A stretch of DNA of 44,223 nucleotides. Source: Escherichia phage EM1. Location: sequence record PQ571293; one strand, given 5' to 3'. The notes beneath the pieces are model-generated. The model was not told the origin of the DNA, made no database searches, and was given only the letters and a program-made list of their open reading frames with translations. A program made the translations under genes and the position numbers. Position 1 is the first letter of the stretch, and each line of letters starts with the position of its first letter. Of the stretch, positions 1 to 227 are shown one piece after another.

Positions 1-44
1 AGGATACTATTCACTTATCGAAACGAGACAGAGGAGTAAGGGTT

Positions 45-227
45 ATGTTTAAGAAGGGTCAGTTGGCAAAAACGAAACGCAGCCAGCAACACGTAATAGT
101 TACCAAAGACGAGGATGAATATGGTGTTGTCGCCGTGTTTAGCCTTATACGGAAGAAACATGGTTACGTTCATCACAATAATTTACAGCTCATCGGCAAC
201 AATTTTAAATTCAAAGGGGTGAAGTGA
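45..227 (+). CDS. hypothetical early protein (60 aa)
   Basis: ORF with GGAG-type RBS about 8 nt upstream; first gene downstream of promoter motif spanning the window junction. Confidence 0.4.
   Translation: MFKKGQLAKTKRSQQHVIVTKDEDEYGVVAVFSLIRKKHGYVHHNNLQLIGNNFKFKGVK

Follow-up and report, generated by a model that had tools for sequence, protein, structure and literature searches.

We analyzed the genome of Escherichia phage EM1 (sequence record PQ571293) as one stretch of 44,223 nucleotides, here called the window, and found that a 14-bp dyad, AATAG-N4-CTATT, forms the conserved core of a family of promoter-like sites. Four of these sites had been picked out in an initial annotation of the window, and further promoters carry the same dyad. 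On balance, we favor the reading that all of them are host sigma-70-type promoters furnished with an operator for a phage-encoded, dimeric helix-turn-helix (HTH) repressor. The operator would be one cis element shared by most transcription units; the HTH protein would bind it and hinder RNA polymerase, and the outcome would be a genome-wide, Cro-like feedback or shut-off that damps most transcription units.

The four sites of the initial annotation had been described as sharing TTGCA(C/G)-N17-TACTATTCA. Three exact matches are present (1294-1325 on the plus strand, 12389-12358 and 21925-21894 on the minus strand), while shuffled sequences gave an expectation of 0.12 even with two mismatches allowed, and 0 of 100 shuffles reached three. 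The fourth copy, at the junction of the window ends, is real, but its spacer is N16 (TTGCAC at 44206-44211 leading to TACTATTCA at 5-13). Searching the window with the core of the sites, ATAATAGGGTACTATTCAC, found it again at 40753-40771 and 40797-40815. In total the dyad occurs six times in perfect form (at 1310, 12360, 21896, 33590, 38130, and 40755) and five times with one mismatch (at 40799, 4264, 12451, 10034, and 28108), compared with 1.23 copies expected at this stringency. A family of only four members is therefore too narrow, since the dyad is found in at least eight promoters, three replication-module promoters among them. Every perfect copy lies in a promoter-like context immediately upstream of a gene.

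In an unbiased scan of all palindromes with 5-bp arms and gaps of 0-8, AATAG-N4-CTATT ranked first in the window (six copies, approximately 150 times expectation) and in the related phages fBC-Eco01 (seven copies) and DUEC01 (seven copies). In the Jerseyvirus SETP13 its six copies were second only to the overlapping extended form TAATA-N6-TATTA (seven copies). A separate pattern scan of IMG/VR returned 47 unrelated contigs, a number consistent with chance for a 15-base pattern, and was discarded.

This motif has been reported before. The fBC-Eco01 paper lists seven PHIRE sites with the consensus tgAATAGTa-ccTATTat-T and assigns them to a “phage-encoded RNA polymerase” (PMC9825357). That consensus is the reverse complement of ATAATAGGGTACTATTCA in the window, and the sites are orthologous. 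The SGP-C paper gives “TAATAGTACCCTATTATGTT” as a phage-specific regulatory element (PMC8790156), and seven PHIRE promoters, whose sequences we have not seen, were reported for VB_EcoS-Golestan (PMC7203180). The dyad symmetry, the -35/-10 context, the registers, the clade restriction, and a regulator are described in none of these papers.

Taking the -10 element as -12 to -7, we found the dyad in at least three registers relative to the hexamers (Table 1). Class 1 comprises the four original sites and the copy at 40799. Here the arrangement is TTGCAC-N10-dyad, the dyad extends from about -19 to -6 and covers the -10, and the -10 itself (TACTAT) is built from the last two bases of the dyad center and its right arm. 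In class 2, consisting of three minus-strand sites, the dyad occupies the spacer (-25 to -12) in the arrangement TTGAC(A/G)-N4-dyad-ATAGT, which amounts to TTGACA-N17-TATAGT. The class-2 promoters head the replication module and, with 11, 11, and 10 matches of 12, are the best fits to the sigma-70 consensus between 31 and 44 kb; class 1 scores 7 of 12. In class 3 an imperfect dyad, AATAG-TTGA-CTATT, lies on a TTGACT -35 at 4264 and 12451, and we regard this class as tentative because about 1.2 such imperfect copies are expected by chance. At the SETP13 site orthologous to 21896 the dyad is still perfect, but it lies 3 bp nearer the -35 and is combined with a different -10 (TATTAT). Because the registers vary and the dyad shifts in SETP13, it behaves as an element independent of the hexamers.

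The sigma-70-like geometry first proposed for TTGCAC-N17-TACTAT was borne out, and the sites lie directly upstream of genes on the correct strand. In classes 1 and 2, -35-like and -10-like hexamers (the latter with A as the second base and T as the sixth) are 16-18 bp apart; class-2 spacers are 17 bp, or 18 bp in some orthologues. Each dyad promoter is found 20-45 nt upstream of a same-strand start codon, either after a terminator or in a divergent region, and we infer that transcription starts there. A YATAAT just upstream of the dyad was considered as the -10 of class 1. It has a matching -35 (ATCACA) at 21896 alone, where ATCACA-N17-TATAAT (21935-21907) overlaps the class-1 promoter as an alternative; since the other YATAAT sites have no matching -35, we kept the class-1 assignment. 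The units with perfect dyads are those of the small genes, the morons, and replication, whereas the units that lead into structural genes have imperfect ones. Promoters without a dyad include TGTACA-N18-TATAAT at 6644-6673, before the terminase genes, and the promoter of an operon encoding an HTH_17 protein (43835-43807).

To place these sites among relatives, we note that the window represents, in circularly permuted form, the genome of a siphophage of E. coli that is Kagunavirus-like. By megablast its first 6 kb matched 460 phage records, nearly all of them Escherichia Kagunavirus or Salmonella Jerseyvirus (subfamily Guernseyvirinae). Because even the top matches covered no more than about 60-70% of the query, at an identity of about 88-91%, we consider the phage a mosaic new member of the Kagunavirus/Jerseyvirus group. 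Relatives were gathered without reference to the motif, as whole GenBank genomes and as 36 IMG/VR loci retrieved through the single-stranded DNA (ssDNA)-binding protein. The three class-2 promoters were then located by their downstream leaders and -10 only, which gave 17-23 unique sequences per promoter.

Among these class-2 orthologues, the proportion of variable cells was 2.6% in the spacer-side arm, 1.6% in the -10-side arm, and 1.6% in the rest of the -10, compared with 20.5% in the central N4 and 16.4% in the 4 nt between the -35 and the dyad. The arms are therefore as conserved as the -10, while the center and the adjacent spacer are approximately 8-fold more variable; each promoter has six to eight different N4 tetranucleotides between near-invariant arms. 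Orthologues of the 1310 promoter behave alike, with zero or one variant in the arms and up to nine in the adjacent spacer. The initial annotation had taken conservation beyond the hexamers as a sign of a dedicated factor. This conservation is real and resolves into a dyad-symmetric 14-mer. Since the spacer-side arm is conserved where sigma-70 makes no base-specific contacts, it needs another reader.

The dyad is also restricted to one clade. Cornellvirus (GRNsp27, VSiA) and the Hafnia phage TS33 retain orthologous TTGACA-N17-TATAnT promoters without the distal arm or the dyad family, for example TTGACActgaATTATTAAACTATTATATT before the same “atcactggccgggcag” leader. Because these promoters persist without it, the dyad appears to be a clade-specific addition to otherwise functional promoters. 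We found no replacement dyad at the orthologous Cornellvirus and TS33 promoters, only an unrelated GGAATA-N3-TATTCC near structural genes.

What would read the dyad? In either of the two main registers its position on the core promoter is such that RNA polymerase would be occluded by a protein bound there. We favor a repressor because coverage of the -10, or of a near-consensus spacer, is the classic repressor position, and because the sites have neither the fixed upstream position nor the helical phase that an activator would need. An activator site of the MerR type was rejected, as it requires an over-long spacer of 19-20 bp.

Cro/CI-type HTH proteins bind dyad operators as dimers, and the operators of phage 434 are 14-bp dyads with a non-contacted center. 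The most likely binder would be the 434-Cro-like protein encoded at 40843-41058, next to two putative operators. This protein is assigned to HTH_3 by Pfam (E = 1e-12), to “transcriptional repressor” in PHROGs, and to a DicA-like family in NCBIfam. It resembles 434 Cro by sequence (E = 7e-6), and 434 Cro is also the top PDB match of its AF2 model (pLDDT 82; 40% identity, TM 0.71-0.77). The gene is located in a divergent intergenic region beside two dyads, O1 and O2, that are 44 bp apart from center to center. O2 overlaps a TACTAT -10 (40806-40811) of the HTH_3 gene or, equally possibly, the start-site region of an alternative promoter for that gene, TTCACA(40767)-N16-TAAAAT(40794).

A second candidate is the HTH_17 protein mentioned above, which is excisionase/BldC-like. 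Structural matches to its model, all with weak scores, were the RacA DNA-binding domain, Pukovnik Xis, BldC, and RdfS. Relatives of this fold mostly bind direct repeats in a head-to-tail manner. We consider the HTH_3 protein the leading candidate, although at somewhat less than an even chance; another factor of the phage or a host factor is only a little less probable, and the HTH_17 protein is the least probable of the three.

Several points weigh against a phage repressor, or against the HTH_3 protein in that role. The searched literature contained no transcription-start, binding, or expression data for Guernseyvirinae beyond the PHIRE lists. The conservation counts come from unique but related sequences and not from independent events, and the class-3 sites, each with one mismatch, could be due to chance. 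Class-1 promoters are weak by consensus, leaving room for a positive role. The recognition helix of the HTH_3 protein reads QGAINQ in Kagunavirus and QSLITH in Jerseyvirus although both have the same dyad, and the dyad-less Cornellvirus has a Jersey-like helix, QSAISH; co-variation of helix and operator across genera was uninformative or mildly negative as a test. O2 is degenerate in Jerseyvirus. The HTH_17 protein correlates better with the dyad phyletically, being 85-86% identical in all dyad-bearing genomes tested and absent from dyad-less ones. However, all 442 of its homologues fall within one clade, and 50,697 phage records contained none outside it; the correlation therefore amounts to one event and is weak either way. 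A 63-aa open reading frame (ORF; 33360-33551, minus strand) directly behind the 33590 promoter likewise tracks the dyad phyletically, being absent from Cornellvirus, TS33, and JL1. It belongs to PHROG 4879, which has no known function, and neither Pfam nor NCBIfam assigns it to a family. Its identity is at least 90% throughout the 77 loci where it occurs, and it is 98% identical to its SETP13 counterpart where DNA polymerase is 77% identical, an unusually strong conservation for a small phage protein.

One alternative is that no factor reads the dyad and that the pattern reflects sigma-70 constraint together with the copying and recombination of a single promoter module. The distribution of the cassettes is consistent with this. 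A promoter-plus-leader cassette of about 85 bp is conserved while both flanks change: the first genes behind orthologues of the 1310 promoter are of at least 10 kinds and those behind the junction promoter of two, so that islands of identity are flanked by interchangeable genes. In addition, the -10-side arm supplies bases of the class-1 -10 (TACTAT). However, the spacer-side arm has no role for sigma-70 and is nonetheless as invariant as the -10 amid much more variable neighbors, the dyad takes at least three registers and shifts against the hexamers in SETP13, and the orthologous promoters of Cornellvirus and TS33 function, to judge by their conservation, without it. The symmetry of the dyad would also be left unexplained. 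We therefore consider this alternative unlikely. As an observation in its own right, near-identity islands at 1280-1351 and from 44180 across the junction to 44 lie between variable genes, with upstream flanks that differ too, and the promoter-plus-5' untranslated region (UTR) cassettes appear to be recombination joints of the early-gene mosaic.

A second possibility is that the HTH_17 protein or another phage factor acts positively, either by activating the weak TTGCAC/TACTAT promoters or by loading onto RNA polymerase, as lambda Q does at its element QBE and AlpA at ABE, for read-through of internal terminators. The HTH_17 protein is well conserved across genera, at the identity given above, where DNA polymerase is 77% identical, and the promoter of its own operon has no dyad. 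QBE and ABE likewise lie between -35 and -10 (PMC9371919), and intrinsic terminators are numerous inside the operons of the window. However, the HTH_17 protein is only 56-67 aa, a bare winged-helix domain like those of Xis, BldC, and RacA, and nothing in it corresponds to the N-terminal ring through which AlpA and Q enter the RNA exit channel. By visual check, the first ~15 nt after the -10 in classes 1 and 2 contain no conserved -10-like pause element (TAnnnT). Class-2 promoters are already near consensus and need no activator, a site covering the -10 is implausible for one, and the correlation between HTH_17 and the dyad comes from one clade. Loading in the manner of AlpA or Q is largely rejected on account of the 56-aa HTH_17 model, the missing ring, and the missing pause element, and a positive factor of any kind seems quite improbable to us.

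It is also conceivable that a DNA-binding protein of the host, E. coli or Salmonella, reads AATAG-N4-CTATT and is exploited by the phage. The hosts of Kagunavirus and Jerseyvirus are closely related, and the two genera share the dyad despite divergent candidate regulators. Against this, Cornellvirus infects Salmonella as well and has no dyad, and to our knowledge none of CRP, FNR, Fur, LexA, ArgR, OxyR, RcsAB, and SlyA has an AATAG-N4-CTATT consensus. We regard a host reader as very unlikely.

Part of the sequence shared by these promoters lies downstream of the -10, and the initial annotation had raised an RNA leader element as a further explanation. A 14-nt leader, TTATCGAAACGAGA, is present as exact copies behind both plus-strand promoters, at 15-28 and 1327-1340, so the copies stand while the ranges first quoted for them (11-30 and 1323-1340) were slightly loose. 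The similar leader assigned to the 4269 promoter was found as TCGACAACGAGAACGGAG at 4305-4322, and a fourth, AAACGAGAGGAG, lies on the minus strand at approximately 40738-40727. In all four (junction, 1310, 4264, and 40755 promoters) AACGAGA is placed alike, 11-12 nt past the -10, and the leader is conserved in relatives, SETP13 included. These features would suit a functional RNA, structured or protein-bound, that controls early transcripts. However, the leaders fold no better than shuffled sequences (z = -0.26, -0.35, -0.87, and +0.74), Rfam has no match in the whole window, and the promoters of dam and of the moron have no such leader. What stays constant among relatives is AAACGAGAGGAG up to the ATG, where it merges into the Shine-Dalgarno (SD) region; most orthologues of the 1310 promoter have TTTACACAAACGAGAGG instead of TTATCGAAACGAGA, with the TTATCG part swapped for TTTACAC, and only the SD-proximal part is constant among them. 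An RNA element of this kind is therefore highly improbable, and the shared leader, (A)TCGAAACGAGA(G)G, is best seen as an unstructured, purine-rich 5'UTR/SD translation-initiation cassette that travels with the promoter.

Finally, the PHIRE motif in fBC-Eco01 and SGP-C and the seven PHIRE promoters of Golestan could be taken as promoters of a phage RNA polymerase, as labeled in the fBC-Eco01 paper, but this is ruled out in practice: the annotations of fBC-Eco01, SETP13, and DUEC01 contain no RNA polymerase gene, every window ORF of at least 700 aa has another identity (tape measure protein, a tail protein, DNA polymerase, and AAA_25 helicase-primase), and the sites have canonical -35/-10 geometry.

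Table 1. Dyad-bearing promoters, their leaders, and candidate regulator genes in the window.
Feature	Coordinates	Strand	Description
P_J (junction promoter), upstream half	44206..44223	+	-35 TTGCAC 44206-44211, spacer, start of dyad left arm AA 44222-44223
P_J, downstream half	1..44	+	remainder of dyad AGGATACTATT 1-11, -10 TACTAT 5-10
P_J leader	15-28	+	TTATCGAAACGAGA, then SD GAGGAG, ATG at 45
P1310 (class 1)	1294..1351	+	-35 TTGCAC 1294-1299, dyad AATAGGCTACTATT 1310-1323, -10 TACTAT 1317-1322
P1310 leader	1327-1340	+	TTATCGAAACGAGA, ATG 1352
P4264 (class 3, tentative)	4264..4297	+	TTGACT(4269-4274)-N17-TATATT; degenerate dyad ACTAGTTGACTATT 4264-4277 over -35
Class 3, tentative	12451..12484	+	TTGACT(12456-12461)-N17-TAAGCT(12479-12484); degenerate dyad AATAGTTGACTTTT 12451-12464 over -35
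P12360 (class 1)	12358..12389	-	-35 TTGCAG 12389-12384, dyad 12360-12373, -10 TACTAT 12366-12361
P21896 (class 1)	21894..21925	-	-35 TTGCAC 21925-21920, dyad 21896-21909, -10 TACTAT 21902-21897
P33590 (class 2)	33585..33613	-	TTGACG-N17-TATAGT (10/12), spacer dyad AATAGCAAACTATT 33590-33603; predicted to drive 33551 and downstream
P38130 (class 2)	38125..38153	-	TTGACA-N17-TATAGT (11/12), spacer dyad 38130-38143
P40755 (class 2)	40750..40778	-	TTGACA-N17-TATAGT (11/12), spacer dyad O1 40755-40768
O2	40799..40812	+	dyad copy AATATGGTACTATT, 1 mismatch
HTH_3 protein	40843..41058	+	71 aa, Cro/CI-type; leading candidate dyad-binding repressor
HTH_17 protein	43604..43807	-	excisionase/BldC-like; probable start ATG 43774, product 43774-43607, 56 aa

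By the ORF map, the blocks for small genes, lysis, packaging, head, and tail are on the plus strand, with two morons on the minus strand breaking into them, and the replication module occupies the minus strand at ~31-43 kb. P1310 is preceded by an invariant A/T-rich stretch (~1280-1293), and the unit behind it extends to 3981. Because genes identified by homology as holin and endolysin lie in this unit, it should not be assumed to be early, as the four promoters had been called. P12360 precedes a Dam-type methyltransferase gene (ATG 12328). P21896 heads a moron from 21881 to 19467 with sie, phosphoesterase, and PNKP-phosphatase genes. Its earlier description as a phosphatase/kinase moron holds for the PNKP-type HAD phosphatase, but the other genes are superinfection-immunity and metallophosphoesterase-like and no kinase was detected. 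P38130 would drive the gene for an Enc34-type ssDNA-binding protein (38066) and those downstream, and P40755, whose leader carries AAACGAGAGGAG, would drive the replication module from 40718.

The junction copy deserves separate comment. All 30 orthologous loci, found through flanking sequence, are contiguous over the window ends, with the sequence CATAATAGGATACTATT, where the window itself has CATAA followed across the junction by AGGATACTATT. The window is short by one T exactly between 44223 and 1, having CATAA and then AGG where all 30 loci have CATAATAGG. The missing T leaves P_J with a spacer of 16 and a dyad whose left arm is broken, and it is probably a linearization or assembly artifact of opening the circular sequence.

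At one locus the dyad may serve both strands. In SETP13 (14850-14900) the divergent moron/tail junction has TTGACG-N17-TATTAA toward the tail genes and TTGCAT-N17-TATTAT toward the moron, with both -10s on the two arms of the dyad. The window has a weaker TTGGTG-N16-TATTAT toward the tail operon at 21884-21911, and no other promoter was found for this operon. Bidirectional promoters as the general cause of the palindrome were rejected, as most sites are unidirectional; this origin is possible only at 21896 and at SETP13 14869. A further one-mismatch copy, TATAGTATGCTATT (10034-10047), is found between the genes for the portal and for head morphogenesis, where it overlaps an ATG at 10040. At this position fBC-Eco01 and SETP13 have a minus-strand moron with its own class-1 promoter, and the copy may be an insertion-point remnant or chance.

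Other non-coding elements lie near these promoters. On the plus strand, 12441-12700 consists of a promoter (12456-12484) and ~200 nt of non-coding DNA ending in a strong terminator (12665-12684), ahead of the structural operon. It is 96.5-98% identical in fBC-Eco01, DUEC01, and the Jerseyvirus SETP13, while the neighboring protein is only ~65% identical. There is no Rfam match, and the minimum free energy is -72.5 kcal/mol (z = -2.1). RNAalifold on nine sequences gave compensatory pairs (for example CG/UA/AU at one pair), and the inner hairpin differs in sequence among variants, each of which appears pairable on inspection of the alignment. A diverged paralogue (76-88% identity) is present in about 15 of 36 other Kagunavirus loci. 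The element is a candidate new phage non-coding RNA or promoter-proximal, put-like element.

By coordinate arithmetic, in other Kagunaviruses the paralogue occupies, on the early-gene strand, the slot that corresponds to 43808-44205 (plus strand), about 400 bp of non-coding DNA between the HTH_17 gene and P_J. The sequence of the window in this slot is not detectably similar to the 12441-12700 element. It contains TTGACA(43851-43856)-N17-TAAGGT(43874-43879), with an unusual TAAGnT -10 like that at 12479, and a GC-rich hairpin at ~44113-44133.

A second dyad, GAATA-N3-TATTC, is found at 12437-12449 and 13220-13232 (plus strand), around the start of the structural genes, and is possibly a late-regulator site. 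It occurs as GGAATAAWTTATTCC in Cornellvirus and TS33 (L004 at 29801, 30431, and 30684; L006 at 22650 and 23473) and, unlike AATAG-N4-CTATT, is common to the dyad-less genera. It overlaps a perfect 16-bp palindrome, AACTATTCGAATAGTT (12444-12459), just upstream of the structural-operon -35. Near-identical hairpins of the type AAGGCCCC-loop-GGGGCCTT are present at three convergent module junctions (11581-11601, 19443-19462, and 31097-31116), where they are predicted to act as bidirectional terminators.

Guernseyvirinae are widely isolated and have been proposed for therapy and biocontrol, with more than 440 sequenced isolates of Kagunavirus and Jerseyvirus. If the dyad is an operator, it provides a testable regulatory map of ~8-10 of roughly 12 transcription units with two candidate regulators, as well as defined point mutations that would separate promoter function from regulation. 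The same reading, with the cassettes, would account for these as borders of mosaic gene exchange, and the compact promoter/5'UTR cassettes of graded strength could be used in phage engineering. It is improbable that one small regulator reading the 14-bp dyad runs nearly the whole transcription programme of Kagunavirus and Jerseyvirus. Should the HTH_17 protein prove to be the binder and act on RNA polymerase at the promoter, it would represent a promoter-embedded regulator of a new kind. Probably the circuit is of the familiar Cro-like type, and the gain then lies in annotation and testability and not in a new principle.

The closest parallels are the Cro and CI operators of phages 434, P22, and lambda. 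Like these, the sites in the window are 14-bp dyads with conserved outer bases and a variable center that overlap core promoters, and a divergent intergenic region has two of them beside a candidate regulator gene whose product is 40% identical to 434 Cro in structural alignment. The 434 operator, however, is ACAA-N6-TTGT, whereas here AATAG-N4-CTATT is found at eight or more dispersed sites instead of two operator clusters. The phage family is moreover described as strictly lytic, and the annotated genes of fBC-Eco01, SETP13, and DUEC01 include neither a CI-type long repressor nor an integrase or lysogeny module.

In having one repressor sequence at many promoters throughout the genome, the system resembles P1 C1, the “stoperators” of mycobacteriophage L5 gp71, and the CIR sites of the Streptomyces phage phiC31. 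Those are immunity repressors of temperate phages, with asymmetric sites in P1 and L5. The sites in the window are symmetric and belong to an apparently virulent phage, in which they would serve temporal control or feedback. KorA of the IncP plasmid RP4 is a small HTH dimer with a short palindromic operator over the -10 of several promoters, and it similarly coordinates many operons of one replicon through one operator, although it belongs to a plasmid and is related neither in operator sequence nor in protein family.

The class-2 sites are also comparable to QBE of lambda Q/21Q and to ABE of P. aeruginosa AlpA, where the element for a factor lies between -35 and -10 of a sigma-70 promoter (PMC9371919). 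ABE is asymmetric and 6 bp long, and it is recognized by a single large protein, whose HTH (residues 128-142) follows an N-terminal ring for the RNA exit channel, and a sigma-dependent pause element is needed (PMC9371919). In contrast, the window has a dyad, no pause element was seen, and the sole HTH_17 protein is 56-67 aa. Overall, the feature would belong to a familiar class, operators that a phage regulator uses within promoters, built on a motif that had itself already been published descriptively.

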